64,000 bases of DNA from Escherichia coli (GCF_003790525.1 NZ_CP033635.1), one strand, 5' to 3'; positions 24,722 through 33,813 are shown, numbered from the stretch's first letter. Notes: a model not told the origin generated them from the letters alone. Numbers and translations are program-made.

Positions 24722-24803
24722 GCCTGATGCGACGCTTACGCGTCTTATCATGCCTACGGGGACCTGACCGTAGGCCGGATAAGGCGTACACGCCGCATCC
24801 GGC
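24722..24803. repeat. REP/BIME elements downstream of aldB
   Basis: gcctgatgcgacgc... and ...gccggataaggcgtacacgccgcatccggc REP-type palindromes. Confidence 0.7.
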
Positions 24804-27670: not shown

Positions 27671-27793
27671 CGCAACAGCCCAATTATATATAATTTTATA
27701 TATTACTATATAAATATGAATCTTGCACCGGAGAAATTGTAAGCATTACTATGCCGACTCTTTTTTATCTTATTTTAAAATGGAATACCGGAC

Positions 27794-28534
27794 ATGTTAA
27801 TTAACCGCAATATTGTGGCGTTATTTGCGTTGCCTTTTATGGCAAGCGCAACTGCTTCTGAATTATCCATTGGTGCTGGTGCGGCTTATAATGAATCGCC
27901 TTATCGCGGTTATAATGAAAATACAAATGCAATTCCGCTGATTAGTTATGAAGGTGATTCTTTTTATGTTCGTCAGACCACGTTAGGTTTTATTCTGTCG
28001 CAAAGTGAAAAAAATGAACTTAGCCTGACCGCATCCTGGATGCCGCTGGAATTTGACCCTGCCGATAATGACGATTATGCCATGCAACAGCTTGATAAGC
28101 GTGATAGTACGGCTATGGCGGGGGTTGCCTGGTATCACCACGAGCGTTGGGGAACCGTGAAAGCCTCTGCGGCTGCGGACGTTCTGGATAACAGCAACGG
28201 CTGGGTGGGTGAGCTATCGGTATTCCACAAAATGCAGATAGGTCGCCTGTCGCTGACACCTGCGCTGGGCGTTCTCTATTATGACGAGAATTTCAGTGAC
28301 TATTACTATGGCATTTCAGAGAGTGAGTCCCGTCGTAGCGGTCTGGCAAGTTATTCCGCGCAGGATGCCTGGGTGCCCTATGTCAGCCTGACGGCAAAAT
28401 ACCCGATAGGAGAGCACGTCGTATTGATGGCGAGCGCCGGATACAGCGAGCTGCCGGAAGAGATTACCGACAGCCCGATGGTTGATCGTAATGAGAGTTT
28501 TACCTTTGTCACCGGCGTGAGCTGGCGTTTTTAA
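27794..28534 (+). CDS. yiaT: MipA/OmpV-family outer membrane protein
   Basis: 246-aa ORF with signal peptide; C-terminal ...VSWRF aromatic end typical of an OM beta-barrel. Confidence 0.85.
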   Translation: MLINRNIVALFALPFMASATASELSIGAGAAYNESPYRGYNENTNAIPLISYEGDSFYVRQTTLGFILSQSEKNELSLTASWMPLEFDPADNDDYAMQQLDKRDSTAMAGVAWYHHERWGTVKASAAADVLDNSNGWVGELSVFHKMQIGRLSLTPALGVLYYDENFSDYYYGISESESRRSGLASYSAQDAWVPYVSLTAKYPIGEHVVLMASAGYSELPEEITDSPMVDRNESFTFVTGVSWRF

Positions 28535-28548
28535 TTCACCGGTGGATG

Positions 28549-28666
28549 TCGGTGCGGCTGGCCTACGTTCTCGCACCGACTCGTGGGCCTGATAAGACGC
28601 GTTAAGCGCCGCATCAGGCAATGTGCACCCTACGGTGGATGCGGCGCGAGCGCCTTATCCAACCTA
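28549..28666. repeat. REP/BIME cluster between yiaT and the GH127 gene
   Basis: Palindrome gtcggtgcgg...ccgcaccgac plus REP-type units gcctgataagacgcgttaagcgccgcatcaggc and gatgcggcgcgagcgccttatcc. Confidence 0.65.
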
Positions 28667-30634
28667 CGGATGGCAATGCTTTTCCTCATTCACCCAGATC
28701 CGCATTTCGCCTTCACCCCGGTTAGCCCAGCTAAACCACGGGATAAATGTCAGAGTTTGCGGCTGGCGTTTGGCTGGGGCATAGTCGTAATGCCACAGCG
28801 GTTGCTGCTCTGGATTGCTCTGTTCATACCGGTAACCCGGTGCCTGGATTAAGATCTTATGGCGGAACAATCCCTTGCCTTCAAATGTCGTAAATGGCGC
28901 ATCGGCGGGCAGCCACAGGTTATGCAGTGACTCGCCGTTGTCGGCCTGTTCCAGGCAATACACCAGCGGGCCGCGCTGAATCGCCACTTTTCCGGCGACG
29001 TGACGCACCAGCGGGTTACCGTAAACGCGACGTACCGGCATTGGCAACGTCAGATTCAGCGTGTCGCCCTCCTGCCATTCGCGGGTAATGTGCAAATACC
29101 CTTTACGAATATCCTGCTCGACCTCTTCCCCATTCAATGTAATCTGCGGCTGTGTGCACCAGTCCGGCAGACGTAAAGCCAGCGTATGACGCACCGGCTG
29201 GGGCGATTCAACCGCAATTGTCACCTGTTCCTGCCACGGATAGTTTCCGCTAACCCGCAGGCGCAACGTGCCATTTTCTACCGGCACTTCCATGCTGTTT
29301 CCTGCGTATATGTTGATATACAACGCATCTTCACGCGGCGTGTAGAGATAATGACCAATCGAGGTTAGCACGCGGGCGATATTTGGCGGACAACAAGCGC
29401 AACCAAACCAACGCTGGCGGATCGGCTTAACGTGATCGTAGATATGGTTGAATTTCAGCGATTTTGGATGTACTTCCAGCGGATTCACATAGAAGAAATG
29501 TTTGCCATCCAGCGCCATGCCGCCGAGCACGGTGTTGTACAGTGCGCGCTCCATCACATCGGCATATTGACTGTCGCCTTCCATTTCCAGCATTCGCCGG
29601 GCGAACATCATCAGGCCGATGGAAGCACAGCTTTCGGCGTATACCGTGTCATTCGGCAGATCGTAATCGCTGCTGAACGCTTCACCGCTGCTCTGTGAGC
29701 CAATGCCGCCGGTAATATATAACTGACGCTGGGCCATATTGTTCCACAGCCGCAAGCAATCCTGACGCTTGCTTTCATCGTGACTTAAACGCGCGAGATG
29801 CGCGACGCCGGTCATCAGGTAGACAAAACGTACCGCGTGACCAATGGCGGTTTGCTGCTGTGCGATGGGCAAATGTGCCTGGCTGTAGGCTTTGTCTTTC
29901 ACCATCCACGCCGGGCCGTAGGTGTGCCAGTGCGAGGTCTGCCCGCGCTTTTCATATTCCTGGTCGTAATAGTGCGGTTGCGCACCACGCTGTTCGACAA
30001 AATAGTTCGTCAGCGCCAGGTAGCGCGGCTCTTCGGTCACTTCATACAGGCGCATTAGTGCCAGTTCAATTTCCGGGTGACCAGGATAACCGTGTAACTT
30101 ACTTTCATCTGGACCAAATACGCTGTCGATATGATCGGTCAGACGGCAAACCACTTCCAGCAAGCGCCGCTTGCCCGTAGCCTGGAAGAAGGCGACTCCG
30201 GCTTCAATCAGATGACCCGCGCAGTAAAGTTCATGACACTCCGCCAGATTGCTCCAGCGTTCTTCGGGCGCTTTTACCGTAAAGTAAGTATTGAGATAGC
30301 CATCTTCACACTGGGCGGAGGCGATCAGTTCAATCACCTCGTCGGCGGTTTTTTCCAGTTCGGCGTCCGGCTTCTGGCACAGCGACCAGGCTACCGCTTC
30401 CAGCCATTTGGCGACGTCGCTGTCCTGAAACACCATCCCGTAAAATTCACCGTCTTGCAGTCCTGCGGCAATGCGAAAGTTTTCAATCGCATGGCTGGGT
30501 TCCGCTTCTGGGATACGATCGTTCAAGGCGTCCCACTGATAAGGAATCACCACATCGCGGACCAGTTGTTGGTACTGACCGAGGAACGGATCGCTGACCG
30601 TCAGTTTATGCAGATCGACTTCCGAAATGTTCAT
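28664..30634 (-). CDS. glycoside hydrolase family 127-like protein (DUF1680; putative beta-L-arabinofuranosidase-type)
   Basis: About 656 aa from ATG at 30634 preceded by taaggag; no signal peptide; conserved Cys-rich C-terminal region; family assignment from memory. Confidence 0.6.
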   Translation of the reverse strand: MNISEVDLHKLTVSDPFLGQYQQLVRDVVIPYQWDALNDRIPEAEPSHAIENFRIAAGLQDGEFYGMVFQDSDVAKWLEAVAWSLCQKPDAELEKTADEVIELIASAQCEDGYLNTYFTVKAPEERWSNLAECHELYCAGHLIEAGVAFFQATGKRRLLEVVCRLTDHIDSVFGPDESKLHGYPGHPEIELALMRLYEVTEEPRYLALTNYFVEQRGAQPHYYDQEYEKRGQTSHWHTYGPAWMVKDKAYSQAHLPIAQQQTAIGHAVRFVYLMTGVAHLARLSHDESKRQDCLRLWNNMAQRQLYITGGIGSQSSGEAFSSDYDLPNDTVYAESCASIGLMMFARRMLEMEGDSQYADVMERALYNTVLGGMALDGKHFFYVNPLEVHPKSLKFNHIYDHVKPIRQRWFGCACCPPNIARVLTSIGHYLYTPREDALYINIYAGNSMEVPVENGTLRLRVSGNYPWQEQVTIAVESPQPVRHTLALRLPDWCTQPQITLNGEEVEQDIRKGYLHITREWQEGDTLNLTLPMPVRRVYGNPLVRHVAGKVAIQRGPLVYCLEQADNGESLHNLWLPADAPFTTFEGKGLFRHKILIQAPGYRYEQSNPEQQPLWHYDYAPAKRQPQTLTFIPWFSWANRGEGEMRIWVNEEKHCHP

Positions 30635-30644
30635 CTTGTGCTCC

Positions 30645-32045
30645 TTAAGGCTGTACATGACGCTGACGCAGGTCGCTAGCAATGCGTGACATCATAGGGT
30701 TATTGAGTTTGCAAAAGCGGATCGCCATCGCCAGCAGCAGGTGGAACAGCGCAGGCAGCAATGTTTCCATTGCTGTGATCCCGCCAAGCGAACTGGCGGT
30801 CTGGTTTTCCACGCCTGGCTGGTAGGCGACAAAAATAAACAGCAGGCTGATGATCCCGGCGCTGGAGGCCCAGGCCAGCTTGATGAAAAACAGATTGAAG
30901 GCGAAGTTCATGCCGGAAGAACGTACGCGGGTTTTCCACTCGCCGTAGTCATCGGCAAAGGCCATCAATGAGAAGTGCAATGGCAATGTGAAGCCAAGAA
31001 TCACGCCATTACCGAGGATCACCGCCAGCCACAGCGTTTGATAAGCCGGGCTGGAGGGCAGGAACCACATCAACACCGCCAGCGCAGCGAGGAGCAGGTT
31101 GGTGTAGTAATAAATTTTGACGGTATCGAAACGCCGCGTTAACGGGCTGACAATCACCGAGCCGATAATGGAGGCGAAGGTGACCATAGTGAAGAACAGC
31201 GACGTGTAGCCCGTACTGCCTTGTAAGACGTAGGTAATGAAGTACATATACCCACCGCCGCGAATATTAAAGACGTTAATCAGCAGGAAAGACATGACCA
31301 GCATCAGCAGCAGTTGGTCGTTGTTCCGCAGCCCGGCAAGATGTTCGCGCAGGGTAAATTTCCCCATTGTGGAGAGTGGCACCCGTTCACGAACCCAGAA
31401 GAAACAGCACAGGAACATCACCACAGCGATGGCGCACAGCACGCCGACGCCCAGTTGATAGCCGCGCGCGGCATTACCCTGACCGAAGAGATCTACCATC
31501 CACGGTAAGCCTACCGAAACCAGAAATCCCGCCACGCCGCAGAGAACGAATCGCCAGGACTGGCAGGAGATCACTTCATTGTGGCGGGTGGTCATGGTGT
31601 TGATCAGCGCGCAGTACGGCACGTTGATGGCGGTATAACCGACTGAAAGGAGCAGGTAAGTGCCGAACGCCCAGGCGATTTTTACTCCCATGCTGGCATC
31701 TGGCACGGTGAACGTCAGGATGCCGATAATGCCGATGGGAATGGCAATCCACAACTGCCACGGACGAAAGCGCCCCCAGCGACTTTGCGTCCGGTCGGCA
31801 ATGACGCCCATCACCGGGTCGGAGATGGCATCAAACACGCGCAGTGCAATAAACAGCGTGCCGACCAGCGCCGGAGTTAAGCCAAAAACGTCGGTGTAGA
31901 AAAAGGTGAGAAAGTTCATGATCAGGCAAGTTATTACGGTGCCGCCTGCGTCACCCAGGCCGTAGCCTATTTTTTCCCGTACAGATAACGCATCGTCAAT
32001 TTTACCTTTAGCGATATCAGCGGTAGTAATCGGTGTAGAGGTCAT
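30645..32045 (-). CDS. GPH-family (glycoside-pentoside-hexuronide) cation symporter, MFS superfamily
   Basis: 466-aa polytopic membrane ORF; N-terminal GPH-type signature ...[25 protein letters not shown]. Confidence 0.75.
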
Positions 32046-32270
32046 AGATATTCCTCGTGAATAGGGAGCAATTTTTAGTTTTATTGCAATGACATGATTA
32101 ATTCTGCCGTGAACGGGAATATCAACAAGGCGAGAAAAGAGTAAAAAAAGGTGACGATTCCGACCTGAATTTAAAAGTGTGAATTGGATCAGGTGAAATT
32201 AATGTTTTTGATTAATAATCAAAAGGTAATGTGTTTAATCATTAATGAATAAGCGGAAAATTACATATCA

Positions 32271-33086
32271 ATGCTCGAATTATCCATGACGTTACCGATT
32301 AAAGTGCAAAATGGTGGATTATTTATTTCCCGTGGCGTAGGGAGGCATCCGGCAAGGCGGCTGGAGTCATGGGAAATTATCTTTGTCGAAAAAGGTCGAT
32401 TAGCGATTCAGGAAGAAGAGCGGATATTTCTGGTCGATGCGGGAGAGAGTTTATTACTCTGGCCGAACCGACAGCATGTTGGGGTAGAGGATTTTCCCGC
32501 CGATCTCAAATTTTACTGGCTGCATTTTGAGGTTAAAGCGCCGGATAGCGACCCGCGCTGGCTCACTCATCTTAGCGTGCCGCAACAAACTAAGGTTGCC
32601 GATCCGCAGGTGCTGGTGGCCTTGTTTCGCCAGTTCTTAAGCGAACAGGAAAAGCATCAACGCACTCCGGCGCTGGAGTTTATTGTGCTGCTGATTTTGC
32701 AGCAGCTCACCCGTGACGCGCGTCTTGATGAACAGGCCGATGGTGCAGGCACCACCCTTGCCTGGAAAGCGCAGAAACTGATTCGCACGCAATATCACCG
32801 CCCGCTTTCCACGGCGCTTTTAGCCCGCGAGCTGTACTGCAATGCCGATTATCTTGGGCGCGTCTATCGGCGGGTGTTTCATCTGACGTTAACAGAAGCA
32901 ATCCACCGCCAGCGAGTGCGCGAAGCCGAAAAGCTGTTAATTAGCGAAGCGCGATCGCTCACGGAAGTGGCGGCGTTGTGCGGGTTTAATGACGTCGGCT
33001 ATTTCCGGCAGATTTTTCGCAAGCACACCGGTTTAACGCCAGCAGCGTGGAAGCGGCGTTACAGCAAGGAACATATCAATTCGTAG
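32271..33086 (+). CDS. AraC-family transcriptional regulator (sugar-responsive type)
   Basis: 271-aa ORF; N-terminal cupin-like domain, C-terminal AraC HTH; divergent from the transporter gene. Confidence 0.75.
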   Translation: MLELSMTLPIKVQNGGLFISRGVGRHPARRLESWEIIFVEKGRLAIQEEERIFLVDAGESLLLWPNRQHVGVEDFPADLKFYWLHFEVKAPDSDPRWLTHLSVPQQTKVADPQVLVALFRQFLSEQEKHQRTPALEFIVLLILQQLTRDARLDEQADGAGTTLAWKAQKLIRTQYHRPLSTALLARELYCNADYLGRVYRRVFHLTLTEAIHRQRVREAEKLLISEARSLTEVAALCGFNDVGYFRQIFRKHTGLTPAAWKRRYSKEHINS

Positions 33087-33088
33087 TG

Positions 33089-33108
33089 CCGGGGCGATGA
33101 AGCCCCGG
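33089..33108. terminator. bidirectional stem-loop between convergent AraC regulator gene and sgbE
   Basis: ccggggc(33089-33095)/gccccgg(33102-33108) inverted repeat. Confidence 0.5.
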
Positions 33109-33117
33109 TCTGAGAGA

Positions 33118-33813
33118 TTACTGCCCGTAATAGGCATTGGCCCCATGTTTACGCAGGTAGTGCTTATCCAGCAGTTCGTTTTGCATCGCAGGGAGCAGCG
33201 GTGCAAGCTGGCGCGAGAACAGGCCCATATAGGCGCACTCTTCCAGCACCACGGCGTTATGCACCGCATCGGCGGCGTTTTTTCCCCAGGCGAACGGGCC
33301 GTGAGAATGCACCAGTACAGCCGGGATTTGTGCCGGGTTCAACCCACGTTCTTCGAAGGTTTTAATGATCACTTCGCCGGTCTGGTATTCATACTCGCCG
33401 TTGATCTCCTCTGCGGTCATCTGTCGCGTGCAGGGGATGGCACCATAGAAGTAATCAGCGTGCGTGGTGCCCCAGGCGGGGAGATCCAGCCCGGCCTGCG
33501 ACCAGATGGTGGCGTGGCGCGAGTGGGTATGCACAATACCGCCAATTTCGGCATAGCGACGGTAAAGCGCCAGATGCGTTGGCGTGTCGGACGAGGGCTT
33601 TTTGCTGCCTTCCACCACTTTACCGCTGGCTATCTCAACCACCACCATATCGTCGGCGGTCATCACGTCGTACTCGACGCCGGAAGGTTTGATTACCATC
33701 CATTGCCGCGTTTCGTCTACCGCGCTGACATTGCCCCAGGTGAACGTCACCAGATGGTGAGCGGGAAGCGCCAGATTCGCCGCCAGCACGTCGGCTTTTA
33801 GTTGCTCTAACAT
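33118..33813 (-). CDS. sgbE: L-ribulose-5-phosphate 4-epimerase
   Basis: 231-aa ORF; class II aldolase/epimerase fold; recognised as SgbE. Confidence 0.9.

Follow-up and report, generated by a model that had tools for sequence, protein, structure and literature searches.

An AraC-type regulator–GPH symporter–GH127 hydrolase unit between yiaT and sgbE of Escherichia coli: a probable system for small β-L-arabinofuranosides, reduced to pseudogene scars in K-12

The window discussed here is a stretch of 64,000 nucleotides from Escherichia coli (GCF_003790525.1, NZ_CP033635.1), and our subject is a group of three genes lying within it, with yiaT (27794–28534, plus strand) on one side and sgbE (33118–33813, minus strand; labelled araD in RefSeq) on the other. 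Gene annotation was taken from the RefSeq record of E. coli SMS-3-5 (NC_010498.1), to which the window is 100% identical over 7 kb. Together with a scan for open reading frames (ORFs), it gives a 656-residue protein of glycoside hydrolase family GH127 (WP_001026864.1; 28664–30634, minus strand), a 466-residue major facilitator superfamily (MFS) transporter of the GPH/MFS_2 type (30645–32045, minus strand) and a 271-residue AraC-family regulator (32271–33086, plus strand). All three ORFs are full length when compared with their orthologues, and they are referred to below as the module.

An initial annotation of the window, made from the sequence alone, had delimited the same three genes, at coordinates that agree exactly with RefSeq and the ORF scan, and had described a regulator divergent from a transporter–hydrolase pair, as the annotated strands bear out. 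Its family assignments also hold: profile searches recover all three Pfam domains expected of a GH127 enzyme, place the transporter in GPH/MFS_2 and find in the regulator the domains of the AraC type. The genes as such were already known – they carry family names in RefSeq, and their scars in K-12 are annotated as pseudogenes – and the locus is a straightforward, uncharacterised enterobacterial member of known families. Of the initial interpretation, the families and the likely function stand, whereas the claim that the unit is an insertion does not.

Three proteins of known families

The hydrolase combines a catalytic (α/α)6 domain (Pfam PF07944, E-value 1.1e-111) with two β-sandwich domains (PF20736, 4e-24; PF20737, 4e-25), and thereby belongs to GH127. 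Its two best full-length relatives of solved structure – the Geobacillus enzyme of PDB entry 4QJY (E-value 1.8e-235, 55% identity over residues 11–650) and, matched over its full length, Bifidobacterium HypBA1 (3WKW; 3.8e-153) – are both β-L-arabinofuranosidases, and both score above the BT1003-type entries. With Ara127N (4QJY/4QK0), the enzyme of Geobacillus stearothermophilus T6, the hydrolase shares both the three-domain architecture and the CACC and E-x-C motifs that hold the zinc ligands and the nucleophile. The Geobacillus gene presumably lies in a large arabinan-utilisation cluster with ATP-binding cassette (ABC) transporters and α-arabinofuranosidases, unlike the enterobacterial gene, whose only partners are the genes for a GPH symporter and an AraC-type regulator.

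The resemblance extends to the active site. In HypBA1, roles have been assigned to the nucleophile Cys417, the acid/base Glu322 and a Cys3–Glu zinc site (PMC8106489), and H142, Y145, H194 and R273 line the substrate site (PMC10850190). The E. coli enzyme has counterparts to all of these: a predicted nucleophile (C414) and acid/base (E318), predicted zinc ligands (E334, C336, C414 and C415, equivalent to HypBA1 E338, C340, C417 and C418) and substrate-site residues H134, Y137, H186 and R269. These residues are invariant across the 80 orthologue loci examined, which are the best of 263 hydrolase relatives found in a scan of one genome per species. A hydrophobic stretch resembling a signal peptide was looked for at the N-terminus of the hydrolase and none was seen, so the enzyme is predicted to be cytoplasmic. 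Taken together, these features suggest that it is probably a β-L-arabinofuranosidase (EC 3.2.1.185) acting on an imported small glycoside. In the NCBIfam scan, the sole match was the model for aceric acid hydrolase (NF049879), with 457 bits against a cut-off of 950; this identity was rejected, since the score is below half of the cut-off and the best-matching stretch covers only residues 252–649.

The transporter is a member of the GPH:cation symporter family (TC 2.A.2), matching Pfam MFS_2 with an E-value of 1.3e-73 and the family model TIGR00792 (‘gph’) with 334 bits over residues 25–462, above the cut-off of 231. It shares this family with YagG, YicJ and MelB. In E. coli, the pairs YagG/YagH and YicJ/YicI likewise consist of a GPH symporter followed by a cytoplasmic glycosidase, an operon design that they have in common with the module. 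At the level of individual transporters, orthology to MelB, UidB, YagG or the YicJ type was considered and set aside, as every equivalog or subfamily model scored under its cut-off: YagG, the best-scoring of them, reached 357 bits against 610, PRK11462 326 against 836, the model for MelB 210 (cut-off 456) and that for the glucuronide transporter 195 (cut-off 528). The transporter nevertheless matches MelB structures with an E-value of 2e-38 and keeps the equivalents of the cation-site aspartates D55 and D59 in MelB helix II, whereas the sugar-site residues K18, D19, D124 and W128 are replaced. N58 has become Ser and D124 Asn. By these measures, the transporter represents a subfamily distinct from both YagG and MelB.

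The regulator has the two-part build of the AraC/XylS family, with an N-terminal cupin ligand-binding domain (AraC_binding, E-value 6e-8, residues 26–132) and a C-terminal double helix–turn–helix (HTH_18, 4e-19, residues 184–263). It is not AraC itself, the corresponding equivalog model (NF007860) yielding 60 bits against a cut-off of 208.

The transporter gene comes first and is separated from the hydrolase gene by a 10-nt intercistronic gap (read from the sequence within 30635–30646, minus strand), and a Shine–Dalgarno sequence, AAGGAG (30646–30641), overlaps its stop codon, 6 nt before the ATG of the hydrolase gene. This close spacing, with its ribosome-binding site, indicates that the two genes are probably co-transcribed as one operon, divergent from the regulator gene. 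Between the two transcription units lies a regulatory region of 225 bp (32046–32270). In a phylogenetic footprint, for which 70 enterobacterial loci were aligned (the divergent intergenic region measuring 215–383 bp among them), its conserved blocks are located on the transporter-promoter side. On the minus strand, these comprise a CRP-like site, CTGATCcaatTCACA (32192–32178), recognised by conservation and consensus; a near-invariant block, CAGGTCGGAATCGTCAcCTTTTT (32167–32140); a conserved direct repeat with 21-bp spacing, TCaCCTTtTTt (32154–32144) and TCgCCTTgTTg (32133–32123); a putative −35 element, TTGATA (32125–32120), and, after a 17-nt spacer, a putative −10 element, ATTAAT (32102–32097), both assigned from conservation and consensus; and, in the footprint, a Shine–Dalgarno sequence, GAGGAA (32056–32051), for the transporter gene.

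The functional roles that these motifs may play are suggested by the resemblance of the whole arrangement to araC–P_BAD, which also has a divergently transcribed AraC-family regulator, and to which the module adds the predicted parallels of two 21-bp-spaced half-sites abutting the −35 element and a CRP-like site upstream. The comparison has its limits: the module regulator differs from AraC, and its sites are predicted from conservation.

A putative pathway for small β-L-arabinofuranosides

The reading that we favour, at a probability of roughly 70%, is that the three genes form a catabolic unit of Enterobacteriaceae, intact and passed on vertically, for the import and cytoplasmic cleavage of a small β-L-arabinofuranoside. 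The GPH symporter would take up such a compound – most likely Araf-β1,2-Ara (β-arabinobiose) or a similar short β-arabinofuranosyl (β-Araf) oligosaccharide or glycoside – derived from plant hydroxyproline-rich glycoproteins, arabinan or arabinogalactan protein and released by other organisms or by plant turnover. The GH127 enzyme would then cleave it in the cytoplasm, with C414 as nucleophile, E318 as acid/base and a zinc ion held by E334, C336, C414 and C415, and the freed L-arabinose would enter the araBAD pathway. Expression would probably be activated by CRP and by the AraC-type protein, the latter occupying the two half-sites, spaced 21 bp apart, that adjoin the −35 element. We infer the identity of the substrate, the coupling ion, the inducer and the anatomy of the promoter, and the scheme should be read accordingly.

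β-L-Arabinofuranosides had also been the initial guess at the substrate, and they remain the best one, because this is the activity of the closest relatives of solved structure and because the residues of the catalytic and substrate sites are conserved. Among them, β-arabinobiose is put forward as the likeliest candidate by analogy with Bifidobacterium, in which this disaccharide (β-Ara2) is taken up by an ABC importer and cleaved by an intracellular GH127 enzyme, an extracellular GH121 enzyme (HypBA2) and further enzymes releasing the substrate beforehand (PMC8106489). The founding member of the family, HypBA1 of Bifidobacterium longum (Bll1HypBA1), is an intracellular retaining cysteine glycosidase with a Cys3–Glu zinc site, as the E. 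coli enzyme is predicted to be, and in both organisms – by inference in the case of E. coli – a small β-Araf sugar would be imported first and cleaved in the cytoplasm afterwards. The two systems differ in that, on the E. coli side, a GPH symporter takes the place of the ABC importer and a releasing enzyme is lacking, so that E. coli would depend on substrate made available by others.

Several observations weigh against this reading. The GH127 family includes enzymes of other specificities, and the literature searched yielded no assay, growth phenotype or expression data for enterobacterial members; what it holds on enterobacterial GH127 are pan-genome correlations, with no biochemical or genetic characterisation found. 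The transporter is a GPH symporter rather than an ABC importer as in Bifidobacterium, and its sugar-site residues differ from those of MelB. No extracellular releasing enzyme, such as a GH121 member, was found beside the trio in the genera inspected, from which it follows that the substrate must come from elsewhere; nor were accessory carbohydrate-active enzymes found next to the trio or the GH127 gene in Pantoea, at a second enterobacterial locus or in Bradyrhizobium, where the neighbours are unrelated genes only. At the level of regulation, a generic sigma-70 scan of 28400–33300 called no promoter in the divergent region, and the promoter elements described above are consensus-level matches that have conservation as their sole support.

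It is on the specificity of the hydrolase that an alternative survives best, although we consider it unlikely: the enzyme might act on some other glycoside – an aceric-acid-type sugar, a 3,6-anhydro-D-galactoside or the glycoside of a plant secondary metabolite – and the operon might serve another nutrient or a detoxification. The polyspecificity of GH127 would allow this, as would the facts that the activity is predicted from sequence, that aceric acid hydrolase provides the only NCBIfam match and that the partner transporter is nearer to the uncharacterised YagG/YicJ-type transporters than to any known arabinoside carrier. However, the aceric acid match falls far short of its cut-off and covers only part of the protein, β-L-arabinofuranosidases rank ahead of BT1003-type entries among the solved full-length relatives, and the residues equivalent to HypBA1 H142, Y145, H194 and R273 are conserved.

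Distinctly less probable is an integration of the module into the neighbouring yiaK–sgbE system for 2,3-diketo-L-gulonate and L-xylulose, so that both would form one larger pentose and ketoacid cluster in which SgbE, annotated as an L-ribulose-5-phosphate 4-epimerase, would handle the L-ribulose-5-phosphate derived from released arabinose. Adjacency to sgbE and sgbU is indeed conserved in many genera. In Pantoea, Kluyvera, Buttiauxella, Leclercia and others, however, neither of the two genes is found within 8 kb of the trio, O157:H7 has the module although it has lost the whole yiaK–sgbE operon, and K-12 and B2 strains retain the operon without the module. The regulator gene and sgbE are, moreover, convergent, with a hairpin between them.

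A β-L-arabinofuranoside unit of the kind favoured here would raise the question of its physiological role, for which we offer a more tentative and rather doubtful proposal, namely that E. coli and other enteric bacteria scavenge β-L-arabinofuranosyl disaccharides that they cannot themselves release, cross-feeding on β-arabinobiose. If so, the sugar might be freed from dietary extensins by the GH121 enzyme of Bifidobacterium, or become available in plant tissue. According to a study of how O157:H7 uses arabinose in plants, L-Araf is not directly accessible to E. coli; no β-L-arabinofuranosidase of E. coli is mentioned there (PMC8489885), although O157:H7 carries an intact module.

Ancestry of the module and its scars in K-12

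A K-12-like genome aligns to the window (local blastn) in three pieces, and MG1655 gives an identical map. The first piece (window 27700–28561) comprises yiaT and 27 bp beyond it. The second (28772–28961, minus strand) is the pseudogene ysaD (b4649), a 190-bp fragment of the GH127 gene that corresponds to about codons 559–621 and is 90% identical. The third runs from 32983 onward, starting with the final 104 bp of the regulator gene and continuing through the hairpin into sgbE; the regulator remnant (32983–33086, plus strand) is annotated in MG1655 as the pseudogene ysaC (b4648), 102 bp from the 3′ end of the gene with its last 33 codons, and its translation differs by one residue from the C-terminus of the SMS-3-5 regulator. 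The initial annotation was thus right that a functional module is absent from K-12, of which only remnants of the genes that are whole in SMS-3-5 are left at the identical locus, but mistaken in supposing that sgbE is directly followed there by yiaT, as ysaC and ysaD stand between them.

The missing segments are also two. The first deletion, of about 210–216 bp (28562–28771), took out the REP (repetitive extragenic palindromic) pair together with the 3′ end of the GH127 gene; its junction shows GGCTGG microhomology (28556–28561 and 28772–28777). The second, of 4021 bp (28962–32982), removed the whole transporter gene, the promoter region and most of both the GH127 and the regulator gene; its junction, when inspected for microhomology, showed none that was clear. 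The four endpoints (28561/28562, 28771/28772, 28961/28962 and 32982/32983) coincide with neither the REP pair nor the hairpin. Since the ysaD and ysaC fragments remain at the site, K-12 almost certainly descends from a genome that bore the module.

Comparison with other Enterobacteriaceae leads in the same direction. The trio is intact and identically arranged in about 70 enterobacterial species among the 80 loci, with identities to the E. coli proteins of 72–97% for the hydrolase, 80–98% for the transporter and 60–93% for the regulator, so that a conserved enterobacterial regulator–symporter–GH127 unit can be defined, although its importance is modest and the locus a routine one. The gene order sgbU–sgbE–AraC–GPH–GH127–yiaT–yiaU, flanks included, recurs in Citrobacter youngae and other Citrobacter, several Enterobacter, Lelliottia, Pseudocitrobacter and Huaxiibacter. 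The guanine–cytosine (GC) content of the module is 0.54–0.55, like that of its flanks, and no mobility genes are present at the locus by ORF scan and RefSeq annotation. Because of this synteny across genera, the flank-like GC content and the lack of mobility genes, the module is almost certainly ancestral at its chromosomal position.

The module genes are under strong purifying selection. Compared with Escherichia whittamii, for which synonymous divergence (dS) is unsaturated, the ratio of non-synonymous to synonymous substitution rates (dN/dS) is 0.03–0.07; intergeneric comparisons, in which dS is often saturated, give 0.03–0.15 for the three genes. The ysaD remnant of K-12 looks different: its 19 substitutions in 190 bp are distributed 6/4/9 across codon positions 1, 2 and 3 and change 7 of the 63 amino acids, a pattern that is as expected for neutral decay and unlike that of live genes. 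That the module of SMS-3-5 is itself a silent or decaying relic of no current function is therefore very improbable, for although more than half of E. coli genomes do without it and no phenotype was found in the literature searched, its ORFs are full length, its catalytic residues are intact and its dN/dS values are low, whereas a true relic such as ysaD shows the flat codon-position pattern just described.

Within E. coli, 2324 of 5426 complete genomes contain the 4-kb segment that K-12 lacks, in every case as part of the chromosome and with 95–100% identity, and the K-12-type double-deletion junction (at least 95% identity) occurs in about 2465, or about 45%. The locus is structurally plastic beyond these two alternatives, with at least three states besides the full locus and the K-12 scar. 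In E. coli EC11, the module is kept and yiaW–yiaT has been exchanged for a type I restriction endonuclease gene and hicAB; on its record (NZ_CM169490.1; locus L083, 1807–3971), the genes replaced are yiaW, yiaV, yiaU and yiaT, and hicA/hicB form a toxin–antitoxin pair. In O157:H7, which likewise retains the module, the yiaK–sgbE operon is gone in its entirety, and in strain F8492 a 141-bp remnant of an IclR-family gene, presumably yiaJ, lies between the AraC-type gene and ysaA (L084, 9589–9729). In a B2 strain of serotype O6:K2:H1, finally, everything from yiaW through the regulator gene is deleted, so that aldB abuts sgbE; in this strain (C 691-04A; L085, 4415–6695), a Fic-family gene is located upstream of aldB.

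We conclude that the module was almost certainly ancestral at this site and was deleted from K-12, as judged from the sequence comparisons above. On this view, two deletions that left ysaD and ysaC behind removed it from K-12 and from about 45% of complete E. coli genomes, and other lineages either lost it together with yiaT–yiaW or kept it while losing neighbouring genes. The initial annotation had regarded the unit as inserted, which is the wrong polarity: it is K-12 that shows the derived state, produced by deletion, and its pseudogenes ysaC and ysaD can be understood as the scars of this operon. The REP cluster and the hairpin are not insertion boundaries. A horizontally acquired small island between sgbE and yiaT, with K-12 as the ancestral empty site, would account for the variable presence of the module and for the REP elements and hairpin near its ends, but is highly improbable given the decayed internal fragments at the K-12 site, the identical flank-inclusive synteny in several other genera, a GC content equal to that of the flanks, the failure to see any integrase, transposase, tRNA, terminal direct repeat or target-site repeat at the locus, and K-12 breakpoints that fall within genes while the hairpin is retained.

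This polarity bears on how the distribution of the module may be interpreted. If it does serve β-L-arabinofuranoside use, it could be a niche determinant, and its loss (K-12, phylogroups A and B1, some B2) as opposed to its retention (O157:H7, phylogroup F and many others) might help to explain differences between strains in colonising the gut or plants. Two genomic studies concerned with inflammatory bowel disease (IBD) single out GH127, one describing it as a clade-variable CAZy family in the E. coli pan-genome (bioRxiv 10.1101/2021.10.19.464957), the other reporting that it correlates with the invasiveness of isolates from IBD (PMC11879602). The module could underlie this reported statistical link; alternatively, since the locus is ancestral and was lost by deletion rather than acquired, associations between GH127 and IBD may largely reflect phylogroup.

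Flanking repeats, hairpins and neighbouring loci

Immediately downstream of the GH127 gene, Rfam naRNA4 (RF02564), a family derived from bacterial interspersed mosaic elements (BIMEs), matches 28586–28664 with 65.9 bits, which is above its gathering score (59.5). The segment holds two inverted REP-like arms, and can thus be described as an inverted REP pair, or BIME unit; the end of its second REP overlaps the TAG stop codon of the GH127 gene (28664–28666). A search with a strict REP consensus and a fixed 4-nt loop returned only another REP, at 24722–24757, and missed both of these, whose loops have other lengths. The initial annotation had outlined a larger REP/BIME cluster at 28549–28666, of which the part identified by Rfam stands, whereas 28548–28580 is a separate hairpin. 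This hairpin, with a 9-bp stem, was rejected as a significant structure, being no better than shuffled sequences (z −0.9). A further near-consensus REP (24722–24757; one mismatch to the pattern) lies just downstream of aldB and is unrelated to the module.

On the other side, a GC-rich hairpin with an 8-bp stem (33088–33109) separates the convergent regulator and sgbE genes. Its fold energy is −22.7 kcal/mol (z −5.4 for the plus strand, z −3.4 for the minus strand); a U-tract is present on neither side, and the hairpin is kept in K-12. A bidirectional hairpin had been proposed at 33089–33108, and the stable structure on both strands agrees with this, although the U-tract that would complete it is missing; a role as a bidirectional terminator, if not a canonical one, is plausible. 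The terminator-like matches in the generic scan of 28400–33300 are mostly intragenic and close to shuffle expectation, which makes that scan uninformative.

The neighbouring gene at 33118–33813 is named araD by the NCBI annotation pipeline (PGAP) and RefSeq in SMS-3-5 and most other genomes, and sgbE in MG1655. SgbE is the AraD paralogue of the yiaK–S operon, and the automated name could mislead pathway reconstruction.

Among the related loci, some depart from the common arrangement. In Escherichia whittamii (L004, 4657–6364), the AraC-type gene comes almost immediately after sgbU, and no match to sgbE reaches 50% coverage; this species may have lost sgbE or carry it in truncated form. In Buttiauxella massiliensis (L070, 6545–9860), a GH127 match beginning at residue 32 is no more than about 640 bp away from the AraC-type gene and no GPH match is found, as if the transporter gene had been deleted independently in this species. 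Several Bradyrhizobium species (L073–L077, L079 and L082) have GH127 proteins that, at 71–72% identity, are closer to the E. coli enzyme than is that of Geobacillus (55%), and whose genes are accompanied by neither GPH nor AraC partners; in L073 (GH127 gene at 6374–8320), the upstream neighbour is an ORF resembling S9 peptidases (oligopeptidase B-like). Horizontal transfer may lie behind the Bradyrhizobium enzymes, or else a connection with glycopeptides.

Two further records deserve mention. The genome Enterobacteriaceae MGYG-HGUT-00110 contains, beside its AraC-type locus (L031), a second GPH–GH127 pair (L081, 5219–9956), each protein being about 70% identical to its counterpart in the window; this pair lies between ubiX and purF and has a LacI-family regulator instead of the AraC-type one. 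A record labelled Chryseobacterium sp. 18061 (L026) has the enterobacterial gene order and agrees in coordinates and identities with that of Citrobacter sp. 18056 (L024), so that its organism label is probably wrong or the assembly contaminated.

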